A stretch of 64,000 bases of DNA from an uncultured candidate division Zixibacteria bacterium (GTDB lineage: Bacteria; Zixibacteria; MSB-5A5; UBA10806). Positions 29,781-57,276 of this stretch are shown in pieces. Location: assembly GCA_963817915.1 (NCBI GenBank), contig CAWFQL010000010.1, positions 39,482 to 103,481 on the forward strand, given 5' to 3'. Positions within the stretch are counted from its first letter, which is position 1, and each line of letters starts with the position of its first letter. A program made the translations under genes and the position numbers. The notes under the pieces were generated by a model. It was given only the letters and a program-made list of their open reading frames with translations. It searched no databases and was not told the origin of the DNA.

Positions 29781-29782
29781 AA

Positions 29783-31021
29783 TTAAACCGGCAATTCTAT
29801 TCCGAAGGCTGTCTTAACATTCGGCTCCGAGTATTTAACATATATTCGGCCGCCGTGATATTCTTCCACGATCCTTCTTGCTAATGTTAACCCTAAACCC
29901 CATCCGCGCTTCTTAGTCGTAAACCCGGGAGCAAATATTTTTTTGAAGTCCGATGCCGGTATGCCTTTTCCATTATCCTCGACTGTTATCAGAACCTTAT
30001 TTAGATTCTTGTTGAAGGCAGTCGATATTTGGATAACCCCGGTTTTCGGGCTGGTGGATTCGAGAGAATTTTTAATCAAATTTTCAATAACCCAGCTCAT
30101 TAACTCCTTATTTATGTTTATACGAGGAATCTGGTCATATTCTTCTTTTATAATTATCCCGCCCGATGGCATTCTAAATCTGAAATAACCGACAATTTCC
30201 TTAATTATTTCACTTAAGTCGTTGTCTTCCAATTCGGGAGCCGATCCAATTTGACCGAATCGAGTGGCAATTCTGTCCAGGCGTTTAAGGTCGCTTAGCA
30301 TTCTAACAGTCATCTCGTCGAAATTGGGGCCTGACTCATCCCCCTGGACTATAATTTTACCCTCCGCGTATTTAAGCCGGATTAACTCAACCCAACCTAT
30401 CAGTGAGGAAAGCGGGGTGCCAAGCTGATGGGCGGTTTCCTTTGCCATTCCGACCCAGATCGATCTTTGCTCCGATTGCTGGATATTGCGAATACCTACG
30501 AACGCCACTAGTATAAAGAAACCAACCACAGAAATTTCGATGACCGGCATTAGCTGAAGCCGTTTGATTAGATAAGAATCACCATAATGCAAAATGCTGA
30601 CAATTTCCTTGCCGGATGTGATTTCAATCGGCGCATTTTCAGAATCGAATTCCTTGACAAAATCAGCCAGTTGCTTTTTGGCGAGCTGAGTGGTATCCGA
30701 TAGGCTAATATTTACTGTCCAGGCAGAGGGTGTTCCGCTGCGATCAGTAACCACTATCGGGATATTAACCTTGGTAATAATATTATCGAAAATGAAATTA
30801 ATTACGGCGGGATCGGTAGCCTCGCTGGCGCCGTATTGAATCAAATGCGCATAGGCTTCGCTGACCCTGGATGCGTCCTGCCTGAGGTATCTGACGACCG
30901 ACTGGTTGAAATAGATAAAAAGAGTTATTACGGCAATCATGCCGAATATCAGAAATGCCTTAAATAACCAGGAATATCCGACATATAATCGTTGAGTGTA
31001 TCTGCCGCCGCGTTTCGCCAA
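29783..31021 (-). CDS. Sensor histidine kinase (PorY-like)
   Basis: Two TM segments, H-box WVGMAKETAHQLGTPLSSL, ENLIKNS, DNGKG, PGFTTKKRGWGLGL. Confidence 0.88.
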   Translation of the reverse strand: MAKRGGRYTQRLYVGYSWLFKAFLIFGMIAVITLFIYFNQSVVRYLRQDASRVSEAYAHLIQYGASEATDPAVINFIFDNIITKVNIPIVVTDRSGTPSAWTVNISLSDTTQLAKKQLADFVKEFDSENAPIEITSGKEIVSILHYGDSYLIKRLQLMPVIEISVVGFFILVAFVGIRNIQQSEQRSIWVGMAKETAHQLGTPLSSLIGWVELIRLKYAEGKIIVQGDESGPNFDEMTVRMLSDLKRLDRIATRFGQIGSAPELEDNDLSEIIKEIVGYFRFRMPSGGIIIKEEYDQIPRININKELMSWVIENLIKNSLESTSPKTGVIQISTAFNKNLNKVLITVEDNGKGIPASDFKKIFAPGFTTKKRGWGLGLTLARRIVEEYHGGRIYVKYSEPNVKTAFGIELPV

Positions 31022-31025
31022 TTGA

Positions 31026-32300
31026 TCAGCCTTTCAATGAATTGACTCCGCCGAGATACGGCTTGAGAACTTCGGGCACTGTTACCTCGCCCGATTTTGT
31101 CTGATAATTTTCCAATATTCCAACAACCGTTCTAGGCAATGCCAGGCCTGAGCCATTCAGTGTATGAGGGAAAATAGTTTTGCCGCCTTGTTCGGGCCTA
31201 TAGCGGAGATTCATTCTTCGAGCCTGAAAATCCTCGAAATTTGAGCATGAGGAAACTTCAAGCCAGGTGTCCACTCCCGGGGCGAAGAGCTCCAGGTCAT
31301 AGCATTTGGCGGCGGCGAATGATAGATCGGCAGTGCAGAGATTTTTCACTCGATATGGGAGATCGAGAAGCTGCAATACTTTTTCAGCATTTTCCCGCAA
31401 TAATTCATGCTCCTTATACGATGTCTCCGGTTCGACTATTTTAACCATCTCTACTTTATGGAATTGATGAACACGAACGATGCCTCTTGTTTCTTTGCCA
31501 TACGAGCCGGATTCTCGTCGAAAACAAGGAGAAAAGGCCACTACTTTTTTCGGCAGTGATCCCGGAGGGAGTATTTCCCCAGCGAAGTAATTCGTCAAGG
31601 ATACTTCAGCGGTCGGAATAAGATATAGATTATCATCGGGCAAATGATACATATCCTCGGCGAGCTTTGGAATCTGGCCAGTCCCGCGCATCGCGTTTTC
31701 GCCGGCGAGATATGGAATTAGCATCTCGGTGTAGCCATGTTGATTTGTGTGAAGATCGAGCATGAAATTAATAAGAGCTCGTTCGAGGCGAGCGCCCGGT
31801 CCGGTCAGAAAATAGAAGCCTGATCCGCTGACATTCGCACCCCTCTGCAAATCAAGGGCCCCTATCATTTCGCCAATTTCCCAATGCGGTCGCGGCTTGA
31901 AATCAAATGTTCTCGGTTCGCCCCATTTGCTTACCACAATATTATCAGCATCCGAAGTGCCTACGGGTACAGTAATGTGTGGGATATTGGGAATCCATAG
32001 CAGGATATTTTCGATTTCGGCCTCGGCCTCTTTTAAGGCGGAATCCAGCGATGCAATTTCATTGCCTACCAGTCGCATTTTCTCTATAAGGCTTGTGGCA
32101 TCCTGAGCAGCTTTTTTTAGTTTGGCTATTTCGGCGGTCACAGTATTGCGCTCGGCTTTAAGCCTTTCGACTGAGGCGATGATATCGCGTCTTTTTTCGT
32201 CCAATTCAAGGAAACGGTCTATGTTGACTTTTTCACATTTATCTTTTATGGCTTTTCTGACAATATCGGGGTATTGCCTTATGAATTTGGGATCAAGCAT
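31026..32300 (-). CDS. serS: Serine--tRNA ligase
   Basis: IPNIPH, LIPTAEV, CFRRESGSYG, RVHQFHKVE, EVSSCSN, HTLNGSGLA. Confidence 0.97.
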   Translation of the reverse strand: MLDPKFIRQYPDIVRKAIKDKCEKVNIDRFLELDEKRRDIIASVERLKAERNTVTAEIAKLKKAAQDATSLIEKMRLVGNEIASLDSALKEAEAEIENILLWIPNIPHITVPVGTSDADNIVVSKWGEPRTFDFKPRPHWEIGEMIGALDLQRGANVSGSGFYFLTGPGARLERALINFMLDLHTNQHGYTEMLIPYLAGENAMRGTGQIPKLAEDMYHLPDDNLYLIPTAEVSLTNYFAGEILPPGSLPKKVVAFSPCFRRESGSYGKETRGIVRVHQFHKVEMVKIVEPETSYKEHELLRENAEKVLQLLDLPYRVKNLCTADLSFAAAKCYDLELFAPGVDTWLEVSSCSNFEDFQARRMNLRYRPEQGGKTIFPHTLNGSGLALPRTVVGILENYQTKSGEVTVPEVLKPYLGGVNSLKG

Positions 32301-34572
32301 TTTCCAGAGACCTTTCCTTTATCAATGCTATGCCGAACACAGATTTTAATAGTATCAAAAAATCGTGATAAACAGATGATTTTTCCAGATATTCTAAATC
32401 GATTAATAACTTTTGATCAGCCGATTTTCCGAAATACCCGGGGCCAATCAAACCCGGTTTTTCGATGAATTTTCTCCAATATCCGGGATATATTCTTTTT
32501 GCTGTCGCATATTCACTTTCAGTTGAAATTGAAGTGCCTACCAGGCTAAGATTGCCCCTGATTATCTCCATCAATCCGAAAGGATTAAACTTCGCAGATC
32601 GACCCTGCCCGTCAACCAAGTATTTGTAATTCATGACATTTTCATTTTTGACAATTATATTCATCTCTTTGACAATATTAAGCTTTTCCCGTCGAGCTAA
32701 CAAGAACTTAATTGCTATCCAGGGCGATATTATGACAAGGGCAGCTATCGAAATAGCGGCTTCGGTAATTCGTTTTATGAATCGGGAATATATTCTTCTC
32801 CCCCTTAGGGAAACCATGAAGATATTCTTAAAGACCGCTGGATTTTTTCGGAATCCCCTTAAATTAGCATGACATTCGCCTGCTACCAGGAAAATAGATT
32901 CCATATAATAGGTAGAATCGAATATCCCCGTCAGATTTTCCTGAAAATCCGGACATATATCCAAAGCTATTCTAGCGACACGATTTGATTTTAGAATATC
33001 ATTCAGATTTTCTACTTCTCCGAGATAAATCAAATCGCTTTGGACTCTTTTTCCTACAAAGCCGACGATATTATAGTATTTCGCCAGCATCTCGATATTA
33101 ACGGGTGCCTCACTATAGTTCGCTAATTTCACAATGACGCAGTTCATCTTTTTCGAGAACGCCGAATACTGTTTATTCATTATGATATGAAATAAATATC
33201 TCAGTAGAGAATTTATACTGAATAAAATAACAATAAAGATCAGCACTGATAACGGCGATACCAGGAATCCCTCGGCGGCATTGAAGTTCGCGAGGAGGAA
33301 TATGGCGGCTCCTACAATATAAGCCTTTAAGTATCCAATAATATATTTTCTGTATTTTGATTCCGCGGGAAGATCGTATATCCCGGTCGCCGAGAAAAAG
33401 AGAATCCAGAATATATTGATCCATATGAGCGAGATCATCATGGCGTCGGTTCTTAAATCGGTCAAAAGATATTTAAAGGAAAATTCATATTTCAGCATGT
33501 AATAAAAAATGAATGAGAAATTGACAGCCAGGATATCAAGCAGTATGGAAGCGAGTCGTTTCCACATATAAAGGATATTCTTATACAAATGCGCGCCAGT
33601 GAAGGCCAGAATGGAAGCGATCAGCACGATGGCCAGAGTTCTCAAAGGCGACTCTCCAATATAATAAGTCATTAGACCGAATACTATCAGGAGGATATTT
33701 ATTAGATATATTATGAAAACTGTCGCTCTGCGGGTTATTCCCATGAAACTAATTTTATGGGATGAATGATCCTTGCCTCCGACATATATTTTTCGTCCCT
33801 CGCTGAGACGGCTGATAGTTACAAATGATAAATCGAAAACCGGATAGGCTATCATTATCATAGGAGCAAGAGCAGCTGTGAGGGATTTTGATGTATTAAG
33901 ATGGGCTATCCCCAGACATGATAAGCTGAAACCAAAAAACAGGCTCCCCGCGTCTCCGAGGAATATATTCGCGGGGGACAAATTGTATTTCAGAAAGCCT
34001 AATGCGGCGCCCGCCAGGGCAAAACTCAAGATCGCGAAAATAGGCATTTCTTTCAGTATGAATAATATGCCAAAGCCGGAAGCAATAATCAGGGAAATGC
34101 CGGAGCAAAGACCATCCATATTATCCAGAAAATTAAGGGCATTCTGCATGCTGACTATCCAGAGCATGCCGATCATGAAAAATGCGAAAATTGACATGAT
34201 TGCTGGAGGATTTTCGACAAAGGCGAGAAAAATAAATGCCGCGATTGCCTGACCTACCAGTTTGGTCAGCGGCATCATTTCGTAGAAATCATCATAGATT
34301 CCGATTATGACTATCAGAAACGCTCCGCTAATCAGCCCTCTCGCGGTCTTGGGAATATCCATGCCGAAGATTAACGATATCACGGCGACGGTGATCAAAA
34401 AGCCGATGAATACCGACATTCCACCGCCCAGAGCAATCGGCGCGCTATGAATTTTGCGGGCCGATGGTGCGTCTACAAATTTGAATTTGATCGCAAAATA
34501 TCTGATCAATGGCGTTGTAATCACTACAACAACGAGGGAAATCAGAAATGATATGAGGTAATAGTTGATCAT
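32293..34572 (-). CDS. Fusion of MraY/WecA/TagO-type phosphoglycosyl transferase with a degenerate WcaJ-type sugar transferase
   Basis: N-half: RKIH, GIYDD, NALNFLDNMDG, IFLGDAGS, GGKDH. C-half: TM block, NIVGFV..YLG, KRITE, GNLSLVG, KPGLIG, DLEY..DFLILLKS. Confidence 0.8.
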   Translation of the reverse strand: MINYYLISFLISLVVVVITTPLIRYFAIKFKFVDAPSARKIHSAPIALGGGMSVFIGFLITVAVISLIFGMDIPKTARGLISGAFLIVIIGIYDDFYEMMPLTKLVGQAIAAFIFLAFVENPPAIMSIFAFFMIGMLWIVSMQNALNFLDNMDGLCSGISLIIASGFGILFILKEMPIFAILSFALAGAALGFLKYNLSPANIFLGDAGSLFFGFSLSCLGIAHLNTSKSLTAALAPMIMIAYPVFDLSFVTISRLSEGRKIYVGGKDHSSHKISFMGITRRATVFIIYLINILLIVFGLMTYYIGESPLRTLAIVLIASILAFTGAHLYKNILYMWKRLASILLDILAVNFSFIFYYMLKYEFSFKYLLTDLRTDAMMISLIWINIFWILFFSATGIYDLPAESKYRKYIIGYLKAYIVGAAIFLLANFNAAEGFLVSPLSVLIFIVILFSINSLLRYLFHIIMNKQYSAFSKKMNCVIVKLANYSEAPVNIEMLAKYYNIVGFVGKRVQSDLIYLGEVENLNDILKSNRVARIALDICPDFQENLTGIFDSTYYMESIFLVAGECHANLRGFRKNPAVFKNIFMVSLRGRRIYSRFIKRITEAAISIAALVIISPWIAIKFLLARREKLNIVKEMNIIVKNENVMNYKYLVDGQGRSAKFNPFGLMEIIRGNLSLVGTSISTESEYATAKRIYPGYWRKFIEKPGLIGPGYFGKSADQKLLIDLEYLEKSSVYHDFLILLKSVFGIALIKERSLENA

Positions 34573-35528
34573 CTTCGATAGAAATCTATGATTTCCTGTA
34601 TAGTTTGATCGAGGGCCACTTTAGGGGCATAACCTATAGCTTTTTCCACCTTGGAAACATCGGGAACCCGTCGCTGCATATCTTCAAATCCCCTTACAAA
34701 TGCTTCATCATAAGGAATATATTGGATTAATGATGATGACTTGCACATCTCCTTTATTTTAACTGCCAATTCTCTGATGGATATCTCTTCTTTGGTTCCG
34801 ATATTGAAAACCTGCCCGACAGCTTCGGGCTTTTGAGCAAGCTCCGCAATTGCCCAGACAACATCTTTGACATTGGTAAAGCAACGAGTTTGGCTGCCAT
34901 CTGAATAAACTGTAATCGGCCGATGCATCAATGCCTGCTTGACAAAATTCGGTACAACCATTCCGTATTGTCCTGTCTGACGCGCGCCGATTGTATTGAA
35001 TAATCTGACTATGACAACCGGCAACTTTTTCTCCTGAAAATAGGCAAGAGATAAGAATTCATCGATCGCCTTGGAACAGGCATAACTCCATCTCGATTTG
35101 GTAGTCGGTCCAAGAAGCGAATCATCCTCTTCCTTGAATGGCACCTGTTCGTTTTTGCCATAGACTTCGGAAGTCGAAGTAATGATTACCTTTCTCTTGC
35201 GACGATTGGCGAGTTTCAAGACGATTTCGGTCCCCATAATATTTGTTTCGATTGTGCTGACCGGACGATCAATGATCAATCGAACTCCGACCGCAGCCGC
35301 CAAATGAAAGACATAATCACATTGCGATATTAACTCTGCCATCAGGATTTCGTCGAGGATATTACCAGTTATAAATTCAAAATTCTTATTTCCCTTTAGA
35401 TGCGCGATATTTTCATACCTTCCGGTGGAAAGATCATCGACCGCGACTACGGAGTATTTTCTATTTAATAATTCCTCAGCAAGCCATGATCCTATGAAAC
35501 CTGCTCCCCCGGTTATCAATGCCTTCAT
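34569..35528 (-). CDS. NAD-dependent epimerase/dehydratase (UDP-GlcA decarboxylase-like)
   Basis: ITGGAGFIGS, HLAAAVG, STSEVYG, YACSK, RLFNTIG. Confidence 0.92.
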   Translation of the reverse strand: MKALITGGAGFIGSWLAEELLNRKYSVVAVDDLSTGRYENIAHLKGNKNFEFITGNILDEILMAELISQCDYVFHLAAAVGVRLIIDRPVSTIETNIMGTEIVLKLANRRKRKVIITSTSEVYGKNEQVPFKEEDDSLLGPTTKSRWSYACSKAIDEFLSLAYFQEKKLPVVIVRLFNTIGARQTGQYGMVVPNFVKQALMHRPITVYSDGSQTRCFTNVKDVVWAIAELAQKPEAVGQVFNIGTKEEISIRELAVKIKEMCKSSSLIQYIPYDEAFVRGFEDMQRRVPDVSKVEKAIGYAPKVALDQTIQEIIDFYRR

Positions 35529-36079
35529 TTATTTGCCCTTTCTTTAATAATTTCGATAGCATTATATAAATTATCAGCCAGAAAATCAGGCTCAATATTA
35601 ATAGAATTGGCCTCTTTCCCGCCGTAACCAGTTTTTACAAGAATTGTCGTCAGGCCGGCATTAATACCGGCCTTTATATCCGATGATTTATCTCCGATCA
35701 TCCAACTTTTGGTTAAGTCGATATCGTGTTCAAAGGCCGCCCGCAATATCATTTCCGTACCGGGCTTTCGACACTGGCAACCATCATCCGGGCCATGAGG
35801 ACAAAAATACCATCCAGCAATATTTATATCGTTATTTTTTAGTAGGGAATCAAGGCGATTATTAAAAACAATAACATCGCCTTCGGAAAAATATCCTCTG
35901 GCCACACCGGATTGATTGGAGACAATTATAAGTTTAAAAATATTGTCGATATTCCGCAGTGCCTTTACCGAATCAGGCAGGAATTCGATAGATTGCGGAT
36001 CGGCCTGAAAATTCTTTTCGATGATAATAACTCCATCTCTATCGAGAAAAATCGCTGGGGCTTTAATTGGATTACTCAT
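35525..36079 (-). CDS. gmhB: HAD-IIIA phosphatase (GmhB-like)
   Basis: FLDRDGVI, VSNQSG, CPH..CQCRKPG, MIGDKSSD. Confidence 0.88.
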   Translation of the reverse strand: MSNPIKAPAIFLDRDGVIIIEKNFQADPQSIEFLPDSVKALRNIDNIFKLIIVSNQSGVARGYFSEGDVIVFNNRLDSLLKNNDINIAGWYFCPHGPDDGCQCRKPGTEMILRAAFEHDIDLTKSWMIGDKSSDIKAGINAGLTTILVKTGYGGKEANSINIEPDFLADNLYNAIEIIKERANK

Positions 36080-36090
36080 TAATTCTGATT

Positions 36091-36924
36091 CTAATAAGGA
36101 ATTTTAAAGACATTCGACACAGATGAAAATCTGAAATCGCTCAATAATTTGTGCAATTTATTTTCGGTCGAGTGCAGGCGATGATAATGGGTTAGTGAGA
36201 GTCTCTTCGGCAGCTGAATGCGCGGCTGGTCAGGATCGATTTCCCATGGGTGAACATAAAATACGCCCGGCATGCCTTCTCTATTGATCTTATGGAAAGC
36301 CCATTTGGTTACAGGATATGGCCATACTCGAAAGTAAGCGCCTCCCCCTACGGGCAGATTAGCGCCCATAAATTTGGCAGTCGCGACTGGAATTTCGCAG
36401 ATTCTTTTTCCTTTGGGAGAAGTCATATCATGTTTAAATCTTTCCGCCTTCACCACACCATAACGATAATTGAAAGTAGGATATATGCTGGAATCATACG
36501 TAAATCCATTTTTCAATAATATATCAAAAGCCCAGAAGGATTTTTCAATAATAGAAAAAATGGGAGCTCTAAAACCAATTGGAGGTTTGCCAATTATCTT
36601 CATTATTGCCTGGTTGGTACGGGATAATTCCAAATCATACTCCTCTTGAGTTAATTTGAAAACCTGCGTATGCGAGTACCCATGAGAGCCAACCTCGTGA
36701 CCGGCATCCGAAATCATCTTTATAAGCTCGGGATTATTTTCCGCCAGATAACCGAGGACAAAGAACGTGGCTTTCACATTATGCTTTTCCAGTATTTCAA
36801 GCATTTTATGGCAGTTTCGTTCGATTCGAGATTCGAAATTATGCCACGTATCGACTTTAAATATTTCCAGTCCCTGATACCAATCCTCGAAATCAACCGT
36901 AAAAGCATTCACAATATCTGACAT
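36091..36924 (-). CDS. Polysaccharide deacetylase (DUF3473, XrtA-system type)
   Basis: TVDFEDWY, ATFFVLG, HEVGSHGYSH, GFRAP, GGGAYFR, YVHPWEID. Confidence 0.88.
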   Translation of the reverse strand: MSDIVNAFTVDFEDWYQGLEIFKVDTWHNFESRIERNCHKMLEILEKHNVKATFFVLGYLAENNPELIKMISDAGHEVGSHGYSHTQVFKLTQEEYDLELSRTNQAIMKIIGKPPIGFRAPIFSIIEKSFWAFDILLKNGFTYDSSIYPTFNYRYGVVKAERFKHDMTSPKGKRICEIPVATAKFMGANLPVGGGAYFRVWPYPVTKWAFHKINREGMPGVFYVHPWEIDPDQPRIQLPKRLSLTHYHRLHSTENKLHKLLSDFRFSSVSNVFKIPY

Positions 36925-36928
36925 TCGG

Positions 36929-38150
36929 TTATCTCCTACTCGCGCTTACGCTTGTGTTAATAAGATCAGCGAATTCTCTGGCTAGTGTTGATCGGCGAAA
37001 TTTCTCGTAGACTAATCGTTTACCATTCTGTCCCATCTGTAAAGCCTTATCGCGATTATTTTTCAAATATTCGATTTTATCGACAAGGTCCCGACAATTT
37101 CCCGGTTCATAATAAATTCCGGTATTATTATCTTCGAGAATTTTCCGGGCTTCGCCATCTACTCCAAGAATTATTGGAAGACCCAAAGCCATACAATCGA
37201 AGAATTTGGATGGAATTGTGGAAAGAAATATTTCATTTTTTATAAGAGCAACAACGGCAGCATCCGCGGTTTTGAGAAAAGATAAGGATTCATTGAAAGA
37301 GACCCCGCCAGTAAACACTATGTTTTTCAGATTTAAGGAATTCGCTTGCTTTATTAGTGCTTCCTTCATTACTCCGTCGCCAACTATGAGATACTCGATG
37401 TTATCATTTTCTCGTGTGATTTCTGCCGCACATATAATATCCTCAACCGCACGACCTAATCCTAGCACACCAGCAAAACAAATTCGATAACGAGAATTCT
37501 TAGTTAAATTCGAATTTGGAATATCGTCGCTATTAAGATCCGGGATCGAAGAACCATTTGGCGCTAAAAAGATATTATTTTCATCCTTATATTTGCGTAA
37601 GTAATTTTTAAAATCCGGCGGAAGTAGTAGTTATTATTCTGGCTTTTTTATAAAACATTATCGCGGGCTTCATACCGGCCCAAGCCGTAAGTGGATTATT
37701 CAAATGTCCCATTTTGATGGCAATTTCCGGCCACAAATCCCGAATATCCGCTACTAAAAAAGATTTTTTTATGAAGGCCAAAAAGATAGCGCTCGGCCCA
37801 ACAAAAAGCGGCGGAGAAGATGCTATTATGACATCGGGACGAGGCAAAAATATTCCGACGATAAAAGAGGATATCATAAAGCTAAAATAATTGATTAATC
37901 TGGATAATAAACCTGACCTTTTTGTAGGTAAAACAAACGTATGAAAAATGGAAATGTTTTCGAATTTAGTTTTTTGGAATAATTTGAATTTGTGCTCTTT
38001 ACTTAATATTCCCGACGGATAACATGGAAATTCGCAGATAACTTTGACATCATTGCCGGAATCAGCCAAGGCTCTAGCATATGGCAGAAGTCTATTGGTT
38101 GGAGCGCCAGGCTCTGGATAAAAATATTGAGTCATCAAGAATATTTTCAT
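36929..38150 (-). CDS. GT4 glycosyltransferase (WbuB-like), one apparent indel ~37610
   Basis: TQYFYPE, NYFSF, SSPPLF, DIRDLWPE in the N part. IVGDG, IPSKFFDCMALG in the C part. Confidence 0.85.
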
Positions 38151-39222
38151 CGAGATTCCAATACATTTCGATAAAGATTTTCCATAGATTTCAAATTATC
38201 TTCCCATCTATAATTTTGTTCAGCAACATGTCTTCCGGCGGATCCCATTTCGTTTGTTAACTGTGAATTCGTGACCAAGTCTTCTTAGGGCATTAACCAA
38301 TTGATTTATGTTATTTCGCTCAATCAGGATCCCGGTGACCCCATCGACTATAACTTCTGGAACACCCCCGACGCTGATGCAACGACAGGCAAACCCGTCG
38401 CCGAGGCCTCCAGCGCCGCAACGCCGAAACTTTCACCATCGGATATGGAAGGCATGACGAAAATATCGATTGAGGCCATGAAATCTGGAATTTGCGAATG
38501 CTTTAGAAATCCCAGAATTCAACTCTGTCAGAAAGACCAGATCCTCGGCAACCTTTTACGGATACGCGCCTTCCGTATGGCCCACGACCGGCGATATGAA
38601 GCTCAATATCAAGACCTTCGGATCTTAAAATAGCAAAGCCTTGATGAGTATATCGAATTCCGTATTTGGCGTCAAGCCTTTTGCTATTCCAATTTTGACT
38701 TTGGACGAGGCTTTCGATCGATAAATCTTAAATTCTTGAAGTCGATTCCAAACGGTATTACGCTTGGATTGGAAATATCAGGATTGAGTTTTAATGCAGC
38801 CAACCGCAAGTAATCGCTGGTCGCCGTTATTCTTTGTTGGCGCCAAGTGCTTTACGAGTCAGAATATCTTAAGATAAAATTGCGATATGGGAATATAATT
38901 ATATCATCGCCCCACACCGATAATATCTTTTTCGGGGATGATCAACAAAGCTCATCAGAACACCATAGCTCGAAGCATGATGTGCATGCAATATCTCAGG
39001 ATTAATACTTTTTACTATTTTTCTGAGCTTCCAAATTTTGAATAAATAAGTTGCCTTATCCCCGCATTGAGGCTGATACCTCCGATATCATCTTCTGAGG
39101 TCCTTGCGTAAGGTTATTAGGTCAATCTATGGCCCAAGCGATCTTAAGCCCTAAACCCATCGCTTTATATGAATAGATCGTTCCTCGCCTAAAATACAGA
39201 TATGCATGGATGAATTTGTCAT
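38147..39222 (-). CDS. GT4 glycosyltransferase, heavily frameshifted
   Basis: Minus-strand fragments read HICILGEERSIHIKRW and IFVMPSISDGESFGVAALEASATGLPVVA. No intact ORF. Confidence 0.7.
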
Positions 39223-39233
39223 ATATGCGTCGC

Positions 39234-40329
39234 TCACAAAGACTTCAGCATCTTGATATAAAAATAAATCAAATATCTATCAATCGATTTAATTATTTCG
39301 ATCATGGGCTTGGCGGCCGGCCTGGTAAGATAATCCAAGTCATCGTTTTTTGACTTGGGAGATAAATCTAAATGAGTGAGATTAAAGTCATATCCGGCTA
39401 CAATAACCCATCCCAAATCAACAAGCTCAATCCATTCGGTTTCATCACGGGCCAAAACTACTTTCTTTTGGAGATAGGCTGATTCTCGTTGGACGCCTCC
39501 GGAATCGGTGATCACAAATTCCGCTTTTTTAATCAAGGAAAGCAAATCGTTATAACCGACTGGCTCAGTAAACTGGATATTCGCGCCGTGGATATTATTT
39601 TCGGTGACAGGCGACAATTTTTTCCGCGTGCGTGGATGAACCGGGAATACAACTGGAAGGGGACAAGTATTCAATGATTTTATGATGGTCCTGAGATTTT
39701 CGGAATTATCAACGGCATCGGCACGATGAATTGTGGCGAGCACAAATTGCGAGGGCAATTTCGCCAGCGACCTATTACTCTGGTTAACGTGTCCTTCGAA
39801 CATGCGCAGACAATCATATAAAATATCCCCGGTGTCATGGACATTAGATGTTTTCCCTTCGTTTTTAAGATTATTTACAGACGAAGGAGTGGGACACAAA
39901 AAGAATGACGCTAATAGAATCGGTCATGACTCTATTTATCTGCTCGGGCAAATTACGATCTTTCGATCTTACACCGGCCTCCACATGAATTACCGGTATC
40001 TTCAGCTTGGAAGCCGCGATTGATCCAGCCAGTGTCGAATTGGTGTCACCTATGACGATTGCCAAGTCAGGCTTTTCAAAATTAAAAACAGATTCAATAC
40101 CTTCAATCATTCTGCCTGTCTGACGGCCATGCGAGCCGCCGGGAGTATTCAGATGATAATCAGGATCAGGAAGATTGAGCTCCGAGAAGAAATTCTCCGA
40201 CATCATATAGTCAAAATGCTGACCGGTATGAATTAATATCGGATTGAAATACCGCGCCAATTCAAGAATTAAAGGAGCGGTTTTTATAAACTGCGGTCGA
40301 GCGCCGACTATAACCGCTACCTTTTTCAT
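39234..40329 (-). CDS. wecB: UDP-GlcNAc 2-epimerase (WecB/WbpI-like), one apparent indel ~39900
   Basis: GARPQFIK, HTGQH, GDTNSTLAG, HVEAGVRS, PEQINR, TIHR, VHPRT, TDSGGVQRE. Confidence 0.9.
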
Positions 40330-41435
40330 TTCTTTTTATAGAACTCCCTAATCGTATCACAGACATAATCGTGTTCCGGAGCGGTCATTTCCGGAAAGAC
40401 CGGCAATGAAATCGCCATTCCGGCGAGCCGTTCGGCAACCGGTAAATCACCTTTTTTGTATCCAAGGTCTTTGTAGCATTCCTGCAGATGTAATGGCAAT
40501 GGGTAATATGTATCTGAGCCGATTCCATTTTCTCGTAGATAATCACGGAGCTTGTCGCGGTTTTCCGCAATTAGGGTGTACTGATGATATATATGGTAGT
40601 TGTATTTTTGTTCAAGTGGAGTCATGATTTCGGGAATATCTTTCAGATCGTCATTATATCTGAATGCCCATTGCCGACGGGCTTCGTGCCACTTTGAGAG
40701 ATGATTAAATTTAACATTGAGTACGGCCGCCTGTATGGAATCAAGTCGGCTATTATATCCGACAATCGAATGATAATATTTTGATTGGGCTCCATGCACC
40801 CTGAGTTTCCTTATCAGCTCATTCAAGCTATCATCATTTGTTACGATAAGCCCGGCATCACCATAGGCGCCCAGATTTTTTGTCGGAAAGAATGAAAAAC
40901 ATCCCGTCGTTCCAAACTGACCCGCAGACTTATTTTTATATTTTGCGCCAATCGCCTGCGCGGCATCCTCGACTATCGGAACATTCTTTTTATCTGCGAT
41001 CGCTATGATTTCATCCATCTCGGCGATCTGGCCATAAAGATGAACAGGAATGATCGCGCGAGTTTTGGAGGTTATTGCCGCTTCGAGTCGTTTAGGATCC
41101 ATGTTGAATGTTCTGGGGTCGACATCGACAAAAACCGGTTTTGCGCCCAAACGGGTGATTACCCCCGCCGTCGCAAAAAATGAGAATGTGGTAGTGACGA
41201 CTTCAGTACCGGGACCGGCATCGAGAGCTCTCAATGAAATCAATAAAGCATCGGTTCCAGAAGCCACCCCAATTCCGTATTTTACGCCGCAATAATCAGC
41301 GATGCTTTTTTCAAGCTCGTCAAGTTCCGGTCCCATGATAAATAGCCCATGATCCAAAACTTTTTGAACGGCTTTATCGATTTCAGGCTTGATAGTTGCG
41401 TATTGTCGTTTGAGATCTATAATAGGTACTTTCAT
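40326..41435 (-). CDS. DegT/DnrJ/EryC1/StrS aminotransferase (WbpE-like)
   Basis: ASGTDAL, PVHLYGQ, EDAAQAIGA, FSFFPTKNLG, GYNSRLD. Confidence 0.93.
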   Translation of the reverse strand: MKVPIIDLKRQYATIKPEIDKAVQKVLDHGLFIMGPELDELEKSIADYCGVKYGIGVASGTDALLISLRALDAGPGTEVVTTTFSFFATAGVITRLGAKPVFVDVDPRTFNMDPKRLEAAITSKTRAIIPVHLYGQIAEMDEIIAIADKKNVPIVEDAAQAIGAKYKNKSAGQFGTTGCFSFFPTKNLGAYGDAGLIVTNDDSLNELIRKLRVHGAQSKYYHSIVGYNSRLDSIQAAVLNVKFNHLSKWHEARRQWAFRYNDDLKDIPEIMTPLEQKYNYHIYHQYTLIAENRDKLRDYLRENGIGSDTYYPLPLHLQECYKDLGYKKGDLPVAERLAGMAISLPVFPEMTAPEHDYVCDTIREFYKKK

Positions 41436-41444
41436 AAAAATCCT

Positions 41445-42200
41445 TTATTTATTTTGATTTTTCAGGAGCTGCTCCGGCGGGACAGCACGGAATTTTTTTG
41501 CGGGAACTCCCGCAAATATCTGTCCAGCTTCAGCATCGGTTGTAAGCAAAGCGCCTGCGGCAATAAGAGCGTCTTCATTAATAACCTTACCGGGCAAAAT
41601 TACCGCACCAACTCCGACGCGAGCGCCTTTTTTCAGAATCACACCTTTGAAATGCTTGAATCGTTCCTCGGTGCGGCCGACAAAATTATCGTTCGAAGTG
41701 GCAACACAAGGAGCAACAAAGACCCGATCTTCAATTTCGGAATAAGCTGTGATGTAAACGTTGGTCTCAAGTTTGCAATATGATCCGATTTTGCAGAAAT
41801 TTTCAATCGTGACACCGCGGCCGACAATCGTGAAATCTCCGATTTCGACATTCTCCCTGATAGAAGAAAGATCGGCAATCAAAATTTTATTCCCTATGCG
41901 AGCGCCCCTGTACAAAACAGTAGATGTTCCAATTATGCAATCATTGCCGATAGTCAGGGCCGGAAGTTGTTGCTCCTTGGTGGTGGCTGAATTGGCGGCT
42001 TTCATGGGAAGCTTGCCAAGAACAGAATTATCATCGATGCGAACATTGGATCCGATAATAGTATCGTCATGAATCACAACGCCGCATCCAATTTTGCAAC
42101 CTTCACCGATGACTACATGCGCTCCAATAAAGCTGTTATACCCTATTACGATATCTCCAGCGAGTTTCGCTGTCTTATTCACGTAATATTCCATCTCCAC
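41445..42200 (-). CDS. Hexapeptide-repeat N-acetyltransferase (WbpD-like)
   Basis: Left-handed beta-helix repeats, APCVATSND, AGVPA. Confidence 0.85.
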   Translation of the reverse strand: MEMEYYVNKTAKLAGDIVIGYNSFIGAHVVIGEGCKIGCGVVIHDDTIIGSNVRIDDNSVLGKLPMKAANSATTKEQQLPALTIGNDCIIGTSTVLYRGARIGNKILIADLSSIRENVEIGDFTIVGRGVTIENFCKIGSYCKLETNVYITAYSEIEDRVFVAPCVATSNDNFVGRTEERFKHFKGVILKKGARVGVGAVILPGKVINEDALIAAGALLTTDAEAGQIFAGVPAKKFRAVPPEQLLKNQNK

Positions 42201-42335
42201 CTCATTTCATCCAGGGCATTATTCCGGCCTTATTAATTTCCGAGAGTAATTGATAATAGGCGGCCGGATTTATTGCAGATATACCCCATTATTTCACGAC
42301 ATCTATTATTTTGAAGTTTAAACTATATCGAAAAA

Positions 42336-43586
42336 TCAATTCCTTTTCAATCTGAAAAGACTTATCAGCCAAAACAGGTCTTCATTAAGCATTTGGGAAA
42401 ATGATGACATCTTCCGATAGGCTTCCGAATTCGCACTTTTTTCCCTAGTATAATATTCAAACAAAACTATAAATATTAACGACATACAAAATGAAAGTAT
42501 TCCTGCGATCAAGGATATAATTGCTCTCTTGGGACCGGATTTAAGATGCGGCGGTTTGGCAATATCGAGGACTTGAACAGTAGGAGTATCTCGTTGTTCC
42601 TGAATTTTAGCCTGTTCGAATTGTTGTTTAAGAAGTTCGAATATGGTTTCCTGAATTTTGAGATCTCTGGTCAATCTTGCTAATTCAAGACCCAATGCTG
42701 GTGTAGCATCAACCGGAAGATTCAAAGATGATGATGTCGAAGTGCTATCGCCTTTTTCAAGAATATTAATCTGTTTTTGAATTTGCTGGATTTTGTATAC
42801 CTGATTGAGATAGCGGGAATTATCAGATGAGAGCGATTTTTTCATTACGCCCAATTCGATCTCGGCCAACACCATCTGCCCTCGCAATTCGGCCACAGCG
42901 CTAATAGTGGCCTTGACCTGATCTTCGAGTGAAATAGCCTTATTTTTTTCTTGGAAATTTCGATACGCTTCTTCAGCCGCAGTTAAATCAACAATGCAAG
43001 CCGATAGCCGCTGTTCAATGAATTGCCTCGTGAATCCGGCTTTTGAAGTCAGATTTTCCGTATTGACGCGATTAAGCTCTTCTACAAAACTATTGGCAAC
43101 CCTTGCGGCTCTCTCGGGATCGGTATCCTCATAGCTGATAGAAATCATCCCTTCCGGTCTTACGGTAACAGTCGTGCGATTCTGCAACTCTGCTATTGCT
43201 CTTTCCTCAAGATCTATCTTGAAAACTTCGGGGAGATTATTTCGCTTAAGGACCGCCTCTGATACGATTCTACTCTTAAGAACAGATGCATATAAATCCG
43301 AAGGACTTGAAAAGCCGGGCATTGACATTCCACCGCCACTTAGCAGCGAACTAAGCCCCGAAGGCAGCATCGCTCCAGCGAGTCCTAAACCGGATTCTTT
43401 TTCAGGAGGCATTAATATTGTAGTGGCAGTATATTTATTTGGGAAGAAGACCAGCATTATGACCATCGTAAGCAGAATGGCGATAATAAAATTTGTCAGG
43501 AGCACGCGTCGCCATTTGAAAAACAGATTTAATAATTGCCAGAATACTTTTTTATCCCCGTCTTCATTATTTATATTGTTATTCAT
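42336..43586 (-). CDS. Polysaccharide chain-length determinant (Wzz/GumC-like)
   Basis: Two terminal TMs, YTATTILMPP, coiled coil, VQVLDIAKPP..KSGPKR. Confidence 0.88.
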   Translation of the reverse strand: MNNNINNEDGDKKVFWQLLNLFFKWRRVLLTNFIIAILLTMVIMLVFFPNKYTATTILMPPEKESGLGLAGAMLPSGLSSLLSGGGMSMPGFSSPSDLYASVLKSRIVSEAVLKRNNLPEVFKIDLEERAIAELQNRTTVTVRPEGMISISYEDTDPERAARVANSFVEELNRVNTENLTSKAGFTRQFIEQRLSACIVDLTAAEEAYRNFQEKNKAISLEDQVKATISAVAELRGQMVLAEIELGVMKKSLSSDNSRYLNQVYKIQQIQKQINILEKGDSTSTSSSLNLPVDATPALGLELARLTRDLKIQETIFELLKQQFEQAKIQEQRDTPTVQVLDIAKPPHLKSGPKRAIISLIAGILSFCMSLIFIVLFEYYTREKSANSEAYRKMSSFSQMLNEDLFWLISLFRLKRN

Positions 43587-45280
43587 TTTGTAGCCTGCCG
43601 TATTACTAAATAGACTGTTGCCAAATTTCCTACGAATACCATGATATCTTTAACCAATGCTATTGTATTGCTTTTTTTCTTTTCTGGAATCCAAATAGTA
43701 TCTCCCGGTTCAAGCGGCTTTCCGTTGCTTGGATCCTGCCATTCCTGAGTGACACCCTTGATTATGGCTATCCCGCCTTTTCTTGCTCGCGAAGAAAGCC
43801 CGCCTGATCTTTTTATATAGTATCTATAATCTTCGCCAGGCACATATGCCACCAGCCCCGGATTAGCAACTTCACCCGAAATTGTAATTACCTTACTTTT
43901 ACGCGGAATGTAAATTATATCGCCCGAGCGTAGAATTATATCTTTTGAAAAATCCTTATTGACGAATAATCCTTCGAAATCAATCGAGACTCTACCAGGT
44001 TTGCTTCTCGATTTAATCTTGAAATATTCATATTCGGTCTCGGACATATCGGCAACAAGCATCTTTTTCAAACGTTCAAATTCAGGATCAGCTACTTCTT
44101 CCGAAGTATAGCGGGTCATTTCGGCTTCCTGCAACGAGGCAAATTCGGTAAATCCGCCAGCCTTCAAAACTACTTCCGATAAGGAAGTAGAATCGCTTTC
44201 GATGGCATAATAACCGGGATACTTGAATTCACCCACCAACTGAACCTGATTTTTTTCATGATAACCCTGGATGGGCTTGACATAAACGCGGTCATCCGGT
44301 TTTAATGGTACATTCCAATTACTTTGCCTTAGATCAACAAAAACGCTATACGAGCTCTTGTTATCAGGATAAAAACTGACTATTTCAACGGAATTTGAAT
44401 CCGCGTCCAGAGAAAGTCCATGCGCAATATTCAATAGATCAGCAAGAGAATCTCTTTCAGAATATTCAAAATAGCCCTGGTTACGCACGGCGCCGAAAAT
44501 ACCATAAAAATTGATGTTTTTTTCACGAACCGGTACAAAAACATTATCACCATCTTGCATTTGGGGATTAAAATCGGAGCGACCTGTGAGTTCAAATCTG
44601 AGAATGTCGGCTTTCAATGTATCACCATTTGCGCGATAGATTTTAATATCTCGCTTGGCAGGTAATTTGGTATTATCCCAATCCTGCTGTAGATCGGCCC
44701 GATAATTCTGGTCTTTTTCCTTTTGATTGAGAAAACCTCCTGCAAGTTCAATTATTTCGGACACGCGAGAAACTGCAGTGGCAGGATAAGCGCCCGGATT
44801 ATTAACAGCGCCACCGATAAAAACTTTGAATTTTCTGAGACTGACCAAGGATACTACAGTCTGAACATTCCGGAATCTGCCCCCAATATCATCCGCAGTC
44901 TTGATCCTTGCTTGCGCAAGTGTCAAGCCGGCAACCTGTACAGGGCCGATTTCTGGAATAAGCAATACGCCTTCGGGAGTAATAGGTAACTGATATTGCC
45001 CTTGGAAATTGCCCCAGATAAAAACAGAGAGGACATCTCCGGGGCCGAGGACATATGTATCTGGATCAATTTTTTTATCGAGGAGATTGGACGAGAAATC
45101 CATCTTTTGGGCTTTTAGGTCCAATAATTCTTTTTCTTTGTCGTCGGATAAAGAGGAAGACTGAGCAAAAATAGTGGAAGGATTGAAAATATTTGAACAG
45201 ATTACGCATGAAATAAAGCTAATAAAAAAAATGCGGGCATAAATTGAAACCCGTCGGCCATAAATACTTATTATTTTCAC
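43583..45280 (-). CDS. Polysaccharide export protein with SLBB repeats (Wza/KpsD-like)
   Basis: YVLGPGD, IPEIGPVQVAGLTL, GAVNNPGAY, GEVANPG, PGDTIWIP. Confidence 0.88.
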   Translation of the reverse strand: MKIISIYGRRVSIYARIFFISFISCVICSNIFNPSTIFAQSSSLSDDKEKELLDLKAQKMDFSSNLLDKKIDPDTYVLGPGDVLSVFIWGNFQGQYQLPITPEGVLLIPEIGPVQVAGLTLAQARIKTADDIGGRFRNVQTVVSLVSLRKFKVFIGGAVNNPGAYPATAVSRVSEIIELAGGFLNQKEKDQNYRADLQQDWDNTKLPAKRDIKIYRANGDTLKADILRFELTGRSDFNPQMQDGDNVFVPVREKNINFYGIFGAVRNQGYFEYSERDSLADLLNIAHGLSLDADSNSVEIVSFYPDNKSSYSVFVDLRQSNWNVPLKPDDRVYVKPIQGYHEKNQVQLVGEFKYPGYYAIESDSTSLSEVVLKAGGFTEFASLQEAEMTRYTSEEVADPEFERLKKMLVADMSETEYEYFKIKSRSKPGRVSIDFEGLFVNKDFSKDIILRSGDIIYIPRKSKVITISGEVANPGLVAYVPGEDYRYYIKRSGGLSSRARKGGIAIIKGVTQEWQDPSNGKPLEPGDTIWIPEKKKSNTIALVKDIMVFVGNLATVYLVIRQATK

Positions 45281-45320
45281 AGTAAAGGAGTACCCTTTCG
45301 ATTTAAAGTCTTACCATTTT

Positions 45321-45353
45321 CTCGCTACTACCTAAACCACAAACTTTTAGCTA
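45321..45353 (-). promoter_or_regulatory. JUMPStart/ops-like element
   Basis: Minus strand TAGCTAAAAGTTTGTGGTTTAGGTAGTAGCGAG in the 5' UTR of the polysaccharide operon. Confidence 0.5.
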
Positions 45354-45387
45354 TATTTCCCGGGCGCTCCTCCTTCAAATTGAATTC

Positions 45388-45416
45388 AATATAATTGGGA
45401 TGCCAAATCAGGTCAA
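45388..45416 (-). promoter_or_regulatory. Sigma70-like promoter of the polysaccharide operon
   Basis: TTGACC-17 bp-TATATT, the same hexamers as the promoter at 17663. Confidence 0.65.
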
Positions 45417-45457
45417 GTAAAATAAATCACAATGGGATGCCCGGTTAGCCTCGATTT

Positions 45458-47962
45458 TCATTCGTTTTTTTGCCAATTCCTGATGCTTTTGGCATACTGT
45501 TTTACTAATTCCTTGGCGGTCTCCGATGAATACGATTCGGCCAAAATATAGAACAAAGCTTTCTTCCGATCGGGACGCAATAATACCCAGCCATCGTCAA
45601 CTGAAAGCCTGGCTCCATCAACCAATATTCTCGTGGAATTTTCAGAATCGGCCATTAAATGACGCATTACCTGCCCCTTTTTGGCCCAGGCGCAGGCGAC
45701 TTCTTTCTCGGCCATTTCCAGTCGATCCCAATCTCCGGTAACTCGTCCTATTTTTGTCCCTGCTTTCGCGAGAAGCTCGAGTATTTTGACGGTCACGAAC
45801 ATGGCATCGACACCAATCTGGAATCCGGGGAATATGAAGCCACCCTTGGTGCCACCTACATACCCTATTTCAGGATTGCTGGCAGCTTCCATCATGGCCT
45901 GATGGTCGCTCGGTATCCAGAGTATCTCCGCGCCGTGCTCGTCTGCCACCATTTCCAAGCCTGCCGTCGCGGTAACCGGAGCGGCTATCTTTTTAGGTTT
46001 GGCGGATTGACAGAATAATTCTGTAACCTTAAGAAGAAGCTTTTGCGATGTTATAGGATTGCCTTTTTCATCGACAGCGATAATCTTTTCGGCGCCGGGA
46101 TTTAGCATAAATCCGATATCGGCATCAAGCGATTTTACTATCGAACCCAATTGCTTAAGTGCTTCTCTTTGGCTTCCCGCGAAATAATGAACCTTTCTGG
46201 GATCGACAAATGAATTCAACGAGACAGCGTCGATACCCAATTGCCCGAGAATATTAGGCATTATATCCGAGGCGGCCCCGAATGAATAATCGATAATGAC
46301 TTTTAATTTGCTATCACTGAATAATTCCTTATCGAAATGCGAAATGAAAGCGTCGCGATACGATTCCAACGCTCTTGGCGGATATTCGATATTGCCTATT
46401 TTCCCGATGGGCGCCCGGCGAAAATCTTCCCGAAGGAAGAGCCGTTCTATCGTTTTATTTTTGGAGGTCGGTAAATCTCTGCCGCCATGTTCAAAGAAAA
46501 TAATATCAATTTCGCCATTGCCATCAGGATTCATTCGAACATGGATGCCCCCCGCTTCGCGGCCGCCTTTCAGCACCTGACGCAGAATCGGAATGGGTGC
46601 TATTCTGAGATCGGCGACATTAACACCTGCCGAAAGCAGGCCGCACATTACGGCGCGATATATCATTCGGCTGGCATCGGATGCACCGCGGCTGAGAGCC
46701 ACTGTCCGTTCTTCGCCAAGCATGGCACCATAGGCGGCCCCCAATTTGGTGGCGAATTCCGGTGTGATTTCAGCATTGCCAACCCCTGTGACTTTGGCGT
46801 CGGAGAAAAGCTCTCGAGTCCACATCTCTCCCCAGATAAGGCTTGAATTGAGAATCGCGCCAGACTCGACTTCTTTATTAGGCCATATTTTGACATTTCG
46901 CTTAATTCGAGCCCCATCCCCTACCCGGCTGTTGTCAGAAAGGATGCAATTTTCTTCGATTTCCGATTCTTCTCCGACATGACTGCTATTGCATAAAATT
47001 GCCTCGCTTACACGGGACATGGGACCGATTGTGGCATTTTCCCAGGTCACAATGCGATTGACATTGGCATCGCGGCCTATAATCGAATTGCTTCCGATTA
47101 CACTCTGGAAGATTTTTGCTCTCGGACCGATTTTGACATTATCTCCGATAACCACGCAACCTGAAAAATCCGCGCCATGGGATATAATAGTATTTTCACC
47201 GACAAGCACATTGGCATCGGGATAATTTAATTTCTTGCCATCGATTTTGATTTTGACTTTGCCATCGAGGATATCTTGATGGGCCGAAAAATATTCTTCT
47301 ATATTGCCGATATCTCGCCAATACCCCGAAGAAACATACCCCATCAGTTTCATTTTTTGGGCAAGCATGGCCGGAAAGAGGTCTTTGGAAAAATCGAATT
47401 CCGTTTTGACCGGAATCATATCGAGTATTTCAGGTTCGAGGATATATATTCCGGTGTTGACCGTATCGGAAAAAACCTGGCCCCAGCCTGGCTTTTCGAG
47501 AAACCTGGTGATTTTGCCATTTTCACCAGTAATTACGATGCCATATGATAACGGATTATCGACGCGAGTGAGGACTATTGTTGAGTCAGCCTTTTTCTTG
47601 TGATGATATTCTAATGCCTCGGTGAGATTGAAATCGGTTAGAACATCGCCGGATATAATGATAAATCGTTCTTTTAGCAGATCCTGAGCATTTTTGACTG
47701 CGCCCGCCGTTCCGAAATCTGCCTCGGCTGTAACATATTCGATATTGACGCCCCAGCTTTTGCCATTTTTAAAGTATGATTTTATCTGATCGGACTGGAA
47801 ATAAAGTATAGCCAAAATGTCGTCAATGCCATGAATTTTGAGCAGGCGAATAATATGTTCCATTATAGGCTTTCCCACCACCGGCACCATTGGCTTTGGT
47901 ATATTGGCAGTCAAGGGCCTGAGCCTCGTGCCAAAACCACCCGCCATAATCACAGCCTTCAT
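45458..47962 (-). CDS. Mannose-1-phosphate guanylyltransferase / phosphomannomutase-like fusion
   Basis: MAGGFGTRLRPLT..PKP, FLEKP, YWRDIG, hexapeptide repeats, then PGM/PMM domains. Confidence 0.9.
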   Translation of the reverse strand: MKAVIMAGGFGTRLRPLTANIPKPMVPVVGKPIMEHIIRLLKIHGIDDILAILYFQSDQIKSYFKNGKSWGVNIEYVTAEADFGTAGAVKNAQDLLKERFIIISGDVLTDFNLTEALEYHHKKKADSTIVLTRVDNPLSYGIVITGENGKITRFLEKPGWGQVFSDTVNTGIYILEPEILDMIPVKTEFDFSKDLFPAMLAQKMKLMGYVSSGYWRDIGNIEEYFSAHQDILDGKVKIKIDGKKLNYPDANVLVGENTIISHGADFSGCVVIGDNVKIGPRAKIFQSVIGSNSIIGRDANVNRIVTWENATIGPMSRVSEAILCNSSHVGEESEIEENCILSDNSRVGDGARIKRNVKIWPNKEVESGAILNSSLIWGEMWTRELFSDAKVTGVGNAEITPEFATKLGAAYGAMLGEERTVALSRGASDASRMIYRAVMCGLLSAGVNVADLRIAPIPILRQVLKGGREAGGIHVRMNPDGNGEIDIIFFEHGGRDLPTSKNKTIERLFLREDFRRAPIGKIGNIEYPPRALESYRDAFISHFDKELFSDSKLKVIIDYSFGAASDIMPNILGQLGIDAVSLNSFVDPRKVHYFAGSQREALKQLGSIVKSLDADIGFMLNPGAEKIIAVDEKGNPITSQKLLLKVTELFCQSAKPKKIAAPVTATAGLEMVADEHGAEILWIPSDHQAMMEAASNPEIGYVGGTKGGFIFPGFQIGVDAMFVTVKILELLAKAGTKIGRVTGDWDRLEMAEKEVACAWAKKGQVMRHLMADSENSTRILVDGARLSVDDGWVLLRPDRKKALFYILAESYSSETAKELVKQYAKSIRNWQKNE

Positions 47963-56632: not shown

Positions 56633-56643
56633 TAGAATCCTCT

Positions 56644-57276
56644 CTATTCTGAGTTTAACTTAGCGCGTACATACATGACTCGTTGAACAACCGTGATATT
56701 GCTGAGAACCGCGATGGCCACAAGCGCAATCACCATCAAAAGGTCATGTGTATGGAATAGCCTATCAACAAGCGGCCCGATGATAGCTCCCACTGATATG
56801 AATGTAATTCTTTCAGGTCTCTGCATCAACCCGATTTTGCATTCGATATTTAATCCTTCGGCACGGGCTCTGGCGTAAGAAGTAAGCAACGAACCAGCGA
56901 TAGCCATTACAATTGTCAGGCTGACGAGGGTAGAATGATAATACGCCATGATGCCGATAAAGGCGGCGATTTCGGAATAGCGGTCGATTGTCGAATCGAA
57001 AAGGGCTCCGAATTTTGTCATTTGGGATGTCTTGCGAGCCAGACGGCCATCGAGGACATCGCAGACACCGGACAGAATCAACGCTATACCGCCCAAAACG
57101 AATTTGCCATTCCAGAAGAATGCACCGGAAAGTATTGAAAAAAGAAAACCTGCAATCGTAACCGCGTGAGGGTGTATCTTGGTATTTTCCAGAATTTCGC
57201 CAATCGGGTTAACGATTGTATAAAAACCGTTTACGAAATATTTATTTAAGATTCTCACATCAGACATAATAAACAC
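56644..57276 (-). CDS. pgsA: CDP-alcohol phosphatidyltransferase (phosphatidylinositol-phosphate synthase-like)
   Basis: [36 protein letters not shown]. Confidence 0.85.

Follow-up and report, generated by a model that had tools for sequence, protein, structure and literature searches.

Large monotopic phosphoglycosyl transferases (monoPGTs) such as WbaP (8T53), WcaJ and EpsZ (TIGR03025) combine a bundle of four transmembrane helices (4TM), a domain whose function is unknown (DUF) with a hairpin, a re-entrant helix and a PglC fold. Passages of PMC10541605 assign the nucleophile to their Asp-Glu (DE) dyad, and passages of PMC12802240 describe K59, R88 and R111 as orienting the substrate in PglC. 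According to a section of PMC10942596, what the 4TM and DUF domains contribute to large monoPGTs is an open question. Among polytopic PGTs (polyPGTs) of the WecA/TagO/WbpL type, members of the MraY superfamily, E. coli WecA requires DD90/91, D156/159 and H279 (passages of PMC5222938). Here we analyze a stretch of 64,000 nucleotides (the window) from an uncultured candidate division Zixibacteria bacterium (assembly GCA_963817915.1, contig CAWFQL010000010.1, positions 39,482 to 103,481 of the forward strand), in which a single gene joins a polyPGT with conserved motifs to a large monoPGT with an eroded active site.

An earlier, sequence-only reading of this DNA knew of no description of such an architecture, a claim that did not hold. 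Fusions between monoPGTs and polytopic PGTs are reportedly mentioned, as unexpected, in the abstract of a 2021 paper by O'Toole, Imperiali and Allen (PNAS 118:e2018289118), and public records contain the same architecture in Caldithrix abyssi (WP_456440010.1) and in an Ignavibacteriota member (MBI3194419.1). The fusion architecture as such has probably been published before. The fusions of 2021 reportedly share with the present protein the presence of both PGT folds in one chain, whereas here the monoPGT appears to be dead and is deeply eroded throughout the lineage. The literature searched, outside of which O'Toole 2021 and its supplements lay, contained no description of a polyPGT-monoPGT fusion or of a monoPGT pseudoenzyme, and passages of PMC11257628, PMC10942596, PMC10541605, PMC10186338, PMC9860679, PMC12550135 and PMC12802240 mention neither. 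Nor did that literature describe a dead variant kept by selection throughout a lineage, or a polyPGT half of twofold origin, although O'Toole 2021 may cover part of this and is about as likely as not to describe pseudoenzyme halves.

The open reading frame of 759 aa runs on the minus strand from 34572 to 32293 and, as had been claimed, contains no internal stop; its ends overlap the stop of an epimerase gene upstream and the start of serS downstream. We consider it probable, though far from certain, that the polyPGT half starts the adjacent surface polysaccharide and that the dead monoPGT half is kept as a membrane scaffold or dimerizer. The parts of the gene are as follows.

32293..34572, minus strand: fusion gene, 759 aa; polyPGT, 4TM bundle, DUF and presumably dead monoPGT domain
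33583..34572, minus strand: polytopic PGT domain, residues 1-330, WecA/TagO/WbpL type of the 'DNMDG' subfamily (PF00953, MraY fold, motifs)
33163..33573, minus strand: large-monoPGT membrane bundle of four helices, residues 334-470 (TIGR03025/TIGR03023 from residue 344; four helices in the model)
32803..33153, minus strand: cytoplasmic DUF (CoA_binding_3-like), residues 474-590 (Rossmann-type matches; first-strand glycine lost)
32323..32796, minus strand: monoPGT (PglC-like) domain, residues 593-750, predicted to be dead (fold match to PglC 8e37, alignment)
32575..32589, minus strand: FNPFG (residues 662-666) replacing the DELPQ catalytic dyad (aligned against the intact large PGT of the same genome)

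The presence of both PGT superfamilies in one protein was confirmed by Pfam domains, a structural model and single-frame orthologues. Glycos_transf_4 (PF00953) matches residues 79-222 above cut-off (E 6e-30) and Bac_transf matches residues 667-746 (E 7e-8), covering profile positions 94-175 only, while the NCBIfam profiles EPS_sugtrans and WcaJ at 344-625 and WecA at 10-304 all stayed under their cut-offs. The profile of E. coli-type WecA, TIGR02380, gave 92.8 bits at a cut-off of 326.05 bits. A phmmer search with the last 175 residues returned no matches in the PDB, and BLASTP against the large PGT encoded elsewhere in the host genome aligned residues 667-752 only. Profiles and fold were needed to recognize the monoPGT half.

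Our AlphaFold2 model, based on an alignment of 33 sequences, reached a mean predicted local distance difference test score (pLDDT) of 84.5; a single-sequence fold of the C-terminal half (pLDDT 40) was not used. Residues 1-305 adopt the multi-pass fold of MraY (Z 34.6, root-mean-square deviation (rmsd) 2.0, 282 residues aligned), residues 593-751 match PglC 8e37 (Z 17.6, rmsd 2.4, 156 aligned) and residues 334-750 match WbaP 8t53 with shifted domains (Z 17.8, rmsd 14.0). Rossmann-type folds match residues 474-591 (Z 7-8), and in the monomer model the DUF ends in a β-hairpin at 575-588 formed by strands E575-579 and E584-588. The model, proposed earlier as a check, contains a polyPGT, a four-helix bundle, a DUF with hairpin and a monoPGT domain in one chain, and the complete layout of a large monotopic PGT is present. 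Of the WcaJ/WbaP architecture described from the sequence, the four transmembrane helices and Bac_transf were recovered. The CoA-binding-like domain was not found by Pfam, as CoA_binding_3 has no match on the fusion protein itself but does match many relatives, yet the model shows a Rossmann-like domain at 474-590.

In the polyPGT half the motifs GIYDD (91-95), NALNFLDNMDG (144-154) and FLGD (204-207) comprise the key residues G91-x-x-D94-D95, N144, D150, D153-G154 and F204-L-G-D207, so that the DD, DxxDG and FLGD motifs are intact where they had been placed. The FxGD motif is accompanied by the loop histidines H269 and H272, the former being the equivalent of WecA H279. In its fold, aspartate motifs and loop histidines the domain resembles WecA, TagO and WbpL, from which the protein differs by DNMDG instead of DGLDG, DHSSH instead of HIHH and a C-terminal extension of 430 residues. 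GxxDD and DxxD are kept in all 42 full-length genome-derived copies from the host's phylum.

The monoPGT domain carries F662-N663 at the position of the catalytic dyad, within the FNPFG stretch (662-666) that precedes GNLSLVG (673-679), as had been noticed in the sequence, and the dyad is present in 0 of the 42 phylum copies. The loss extends beyond the dyad, which the earlier reading had missed: all five PglC active-site equivalents (K59, R88, D93, E94 and R111; numbering from PMC12802240) are gone, with YLVDG for KFRSM, a gap at R88 and GTSI for GPRP. The segment from the re-entrant helix to GxLSLVG, which holds the mobile loop, comprises 73 aa compared to 100 in dyad-bearing fusions and is thus about 27 residues shorter; its medians by family group shrink stepwise from 97 to 78 to 73 aa. 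At the dyad position, families f4, f8, f12 and f18 mostly have EK, ER or similar pairs and f1 and f2 are fully eroded. In these losses and in its place behind a polyPGT the domain departs from WbaP, WcaJ and EpsZ, with which it still shares the 4TM bundle, the hairpin-bearing DUF, the re-entrant helix and the PglC fold. The domain retains K600-R601, E604-x12-P617, GxLSLVG, KPG and D737. E604-x12-P617 corresponds to the D-x12-P signature of the re-entrant helix, with Glu here and Asp in 39 of 42 copies, and D737 is the stabilizing C-terminal Asp. The invariant or near-invariant residues of the domain (R601, P617, G673, G679, P706-G707 and D737) are structural. From the loss of five active-site residues we infer that the C-terminal half is unable to form the covalent Asp-phosphosugar intermediate.

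We regard it as very improbable that the monoPGT half still works via other residues, as no residue is conserved at the dyad position (18 different pairs in 42 copies), or that the gene is an assembly artefact produced by read-through of two genes. The latter needed testing because a wecB-like epimerase gene, a glycosyltransferase gene and uvrB nearby are frameshifted in this assembly, but it is already refuted by full-length single-frame orthologues in many independent genomes, which the proposed search for the architecture in other genomes retrieved. The orthologue of genome G003 aligns over residues 1-759 in one frame, and within the host's order a full-length single-frame fusion is encoded by 22 of 24 genomes, the host included. 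In the remaining two, the gene is present as two adjacent pieces with a break near residue 232 (G009) or as fragments on short contigs (G011), and the breaks do not fall at the polyPGT/monoPGT junction. Split genes at 18940-20794, 36929-40329 and 59752-62592 of the window (uvrB, glycosyltransferases, 2-epimerase and valS) probably reflect assembly indel errors.

Among 200 other genomes of the host's phylum, with at most five candidates scored per genome, 43 gave a match at E<=1e-160, a few of them cut by contig ends or split. They are spread over 7 of 19 families (f1 8/9, f2 9/9, f4 4/4, f8 8/8, f12 4/4, f18 9/10, f15 1/2), and under the same settings the fusion was not found in 154 genomes of the 12 other families. 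Sets of 101 genomes each from the phyla of G209 (KSB1) and G208 (Cloacimonadota), which were without an internal positive control, contained no fusion at E<=1e-130. In a broad scan of genome collections, ordinary WecA genes dominated and 1 full fusion was among the 80 loci listed. Homologues of the same clade that bear names (L024, P0420 and P0424) are labeled Zixibacteria, which makes the host itself a probable member of that phylum.

That the dead monoPGT is retained, as the sequence-only reading had supposed, is supported by its evolution. Ratios of nonsynonymous to synonymous substitution (dN/dS; NG86 with whole-gene dS) were calculated for seven pairs with unsaturated synonymous sites. 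In six close pairs the dyad-less domain gave 0.25, 0.15, 0.12, 0.19, 0.16 and 0.15, and the DUF ranged from 0.16 to 0.69 and the polyPGT from 0.07 to 0.32; the seventh pair is a mosaic (monoPGT domain 0.03, DUF 0.93). These values indicate that purifying selection acts on the domain in relatives. A functionless remnant, constrained only since a misfolded membrane tail would harm the fused enzyme, would agree with the stepwise shortening of the loop segment and with a frameshift at codon ~515 in G110, which is either real loss or a sequencing error. Such a remnant seems improbable to us in view of the dN/dS values and of the 42 full-length copies in seven families that keep all 430 residues, although a stop after residue 330 would be costless.

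A survey of 186 full-length fusions combined the 42 genome-derived copies with 31 and 113 copies from database searches. Both sites are intact in 101 of the 186, only the polyPGT core in 83, only the monoPGT site in one (P0054) and neither in one (P0035, which lacks the dyad and has an Asp of the polyPGT core replaced by Asn); these shares are biased, as the set of 113 stems from a search seeded with a dual-intact protein, of which the best 120 of 1006 matches were considered and four short new matches dropped. P0054 is the reverse case, with an intact monoPGT (KFRSM, DEIPQ, GPRP) and a ruined polyPGT lacking DD, DxxD and GD. Named dual-intact copies belong to Ignavibacteria/Bacteroidota or Marinimicrobia, and Calditrichota copies read YK at the dyad. 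One architecture therefore offers a natural series (both sites, polyPGT only, monoPGT only) whose comparison separates scaffold, regulation and catalysis. The type with a dead monoPGT has a cultured host in Caldithrix abyssi (YK), and the family is a good biochemical target. The suggestion that the polyPGT has taken over catalysis fits the series from dual-intact to dead copies, but our trees do not prove this order for the Zixibacterial lineage.

The fused polyPGT halves fall into two groups, a DGLDG-type in Ignavibacteria, Marinimicrobia and Calditrichota and the DNMDG-type of the host lineage, which sits near free WecA-like proteins of Cloacimonadota. A single clade for all fused polyPGT halves was rejected (approximately unbiased (AU) test, p 2.6e-6; 45 rows, LG+G4). 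The monoPGT halves all lie within one group of the FCB (Fibrobacteres-Chlorobi-Bacteroidetes) type and form one side with a support of 96 when the unfused P0357 is left out. With P0357 in the set, which nests among the fusions, their single clade was rejected as well (p 0.0099), and a tree of the 4TM-DUF region does not settle the question. Two histories would account for this: separate fusions that drew on related large PGTs, or a single fusion whose polyPGT was exchanged afterwards.

In G029 (L120/L151), residues ~251-600 resemble f18/f12 inside f8-like flanks, and residues 601-750 are 92-96% identical to G206; this mosaic reflects recombination or misassembly. Unless it is misassembled, segments of the fusion gene are exchangeable.

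Polytopic PGTs are also linked to the accessory module alone. Proteins with a polyPGT and the 4TM-DUF region without a monoPGT domain make up 77 of the best 150 representatives, with a few fragments among them, which suggests that polyPGTs benefit from the module even when it brings no second active site. A family of this kind with ~600 aa (polyPGT, 4TM and CoA_binding_3; e.g. P0044-P0162, L027, L030, L039, L043, L048 and L068) occurs in Acidobacteriota, Planctomycetota, Omnitrophota, Desulfobacterales and others, and we know of no name for it. These proteins mostly share with ours the broad polyPGT clade, the kind of accessory module and an upstream epimerase, but they lack the monoPGT domain and their 4TM-DUF module forms a separate clade. 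An origin of the module of our protein from this family was rejected (AU p 0.0096).

Tentatively, the 4TM-DUF(-monoPGT) unit could be a portable scaffold or control unit that polyPGTs acquired several times. The monoPGT site would then have been lost on at least two occasions (to YK in Calditrichota; to EK and then by full erosion in Zixibacteria), and the Zixibacterial polyPGT would stem from a different subfamily, brought in by an independent fusion or by exchange of the domain. If this is true, a dead half controls a mechanistically unrelated enzyme in cis, and the long-open role of the accessory domains of large PGTs becomes testable apart from their own catalysis. Related arrangements were seen in P0040, P0052 and P0121 of the ~600-aa family, which extend into a PglF-type dehydratase, in P0073 and P0116, in which a polyPGT is fused to an O-antigen ligase-like Wzy_C domain, and in a GT2 glycosyltransferase joined to a large monoPGT that reads DK instead of DE (L195:305-2620, Wallbacteria).

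The neighbors of the fusion gene are the following.

34569..35528, minus strand: NAD-dependent nucleotide-sugar epimerase/dehydratase, directly upstream of the fusion
35525..47962, minus strand: upstream polysaccharide cluster with nucleotidyl transferase/PGM, Wza-like, Wzz-like, hexapeptide acetyltransferase, DegT aminotransferase and further sugar genes; the remainder comprises a UDP-GlcNAc 2-epimerase (frameshifted), glycosyltransferases (split), a deacetylase and a GmhB-like HAD protein
31026..32300, minus strand: serS, fixed downstream neighbor

Polysaccharide genes precede the fusion in 31 of 31 loci and vary by family (glycosyltransferases, flippases, O-antigen ligase/polymerase-like genes). 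An NAD-dependent epimerase/dehydratase is found in 25 of the 31, mostly directly upstream; it likely supplies or shapes the donor sugar, and in other phyla its orthologues (53-63%) often lie ahead of the ~600-aa genes as well. The fusion is the sole PGT gene of its locus, and the other PGT genes of the host (MraY, a free WecA-like protein ~50 kb away, and one large PGT and one shorter monoPGT, both intact) lie elsewhere; the fusion is thus likely the initiator of the cluster. As motifs, fold and context suggest, the polytopic domain would use a UDP-sugar to load undecaprenyl phosphate with an N-acetylhexosamine-type sugar-1-phosphate, and the resulting undecaprenyl-PP-sugar would feed the adjacent cluster. 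Genes at 39234-42200 encode an acetyltransferase, a DegT aminotransferase and a 2-epimerase, a set similar to the WbpD/WbpE/WbpI route that leads to di-N-acetylated mannuronic acid. A Gfo/Idh/MocA oxidoreductase that is present in 7 loci of the same family is missing from this locus, its best match in the genome reaching 25%. Scans for promoters and terminators stayed at chance level.

The former monoPGT half would stay folded and membrane-anchored, as the selection in relatives indicates, and its WbaP-like scaffold of 4TM, DUF and hairpin may dimerize the protein or hold it together with other enzymes of the pathway. WbaP dimerizes through the DUF hairpin according to a section of PMC10942596. 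The same section reports that the WbaP DUF binds uridine nucleotides and proposes an allosteric role, and passages of PMC12802240 describe activation of the large PGT EpsZ by a response regulator. A regulatory function of the dead half, with the DUF sensing UMP or a UDP-sugar or docking another protein, for instance a response regulator, and thereby tuning the polyPGT, would also agree with a histidine kinase two genes downstream in 27 of the 31 loci, with a PorX-type regulator three genes downstream in 25 and with the DUF being the best-kept domain (0.59) in the 21 YK-type copies. In the host's order, by contrast, the DUF is the least conserved domain (mean identity 0.30 vs 0.44 for the polyPGT). 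Its first-strand glycine is absent in 21 of 21 directly read copies of the order but kept in 20 of 20 copies of other families and in 101 of 101 dual-intact copies, and it is also present in three close database relatives; its role in UMP binding is our supposition. Divergence and loss of the glycine across the order favor structure over nucleotide sensing, and we consider regulation unlikely here. Of the scaffold, dimerizer or regulator envisaged from the sequence, the first two are plausible and the third is weaker in this protein.

The re-entrant helix, with R601 and P617 in 42 of 42 copies, allows yet another function: the dead domain could bind undecaprenyl phosphate or the lipid-linked product and feed or clear the polyPGT site. 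Less eroded families carry E-K or E-R in place of the dyad (12 of 42 copies), often behind an Arg or Lys, and these residues could bind phosphate, but the basic residues and the loop are gone in the present protein, where we think such lipid handling improbable.

Several observations weigh against a polysaccharide-initiating polyPGT on a retained scaffold, among them the low conservation of the DUF. The equivalent of H279 is kept in 25 of 42 copies but missing in 17, whose loops read YNNSPRR or PDSSPYR, and the FxGD aspartate is kept in 40 and lost in 2; the polyPGT half of some relatives may be altered or inactive. The dN/dS pairs are all from relatives, one of them from the host's family, and none includes the host genome. 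Since polyPGTs such as MraY dimerize on their own (a passage of PMC10942596), a second dimerizer is not obviously needed. Furthermore, the cluster of the 64-kb window yielded neither a Wzx nor a Wzy gene, whereas relatives possess them.

Directly after the fusion, serS is found in 31 of 31 loci. It is followed by genes for a histidine kinase, a PorX-type regulator, tsaE, tsaB, GNAT, accD and a folC-like protein. The histidine kinase and the PorX-type response regulator, which carries a PglZ domain (NF052313, 657 bits), occupy 28221-31021 of the window, and the operon serS-HK-porX-tsaE-tsaB-GNAT-accD-folC is present in most loci. Elsewhere in the window a Y-family polymerase adjoins a DnaE-type polymerase (240-4215), an arrangement like that of an imuB-dnaE2 mutagenesis cassette. 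At 55445-57276 a myo-inositol-1-phosphate synthase lies beside a CDP-alcohol phosphatidyltransferase, which suggests synthesis of an inositol lipid or of di-myo-inositol phosphate.

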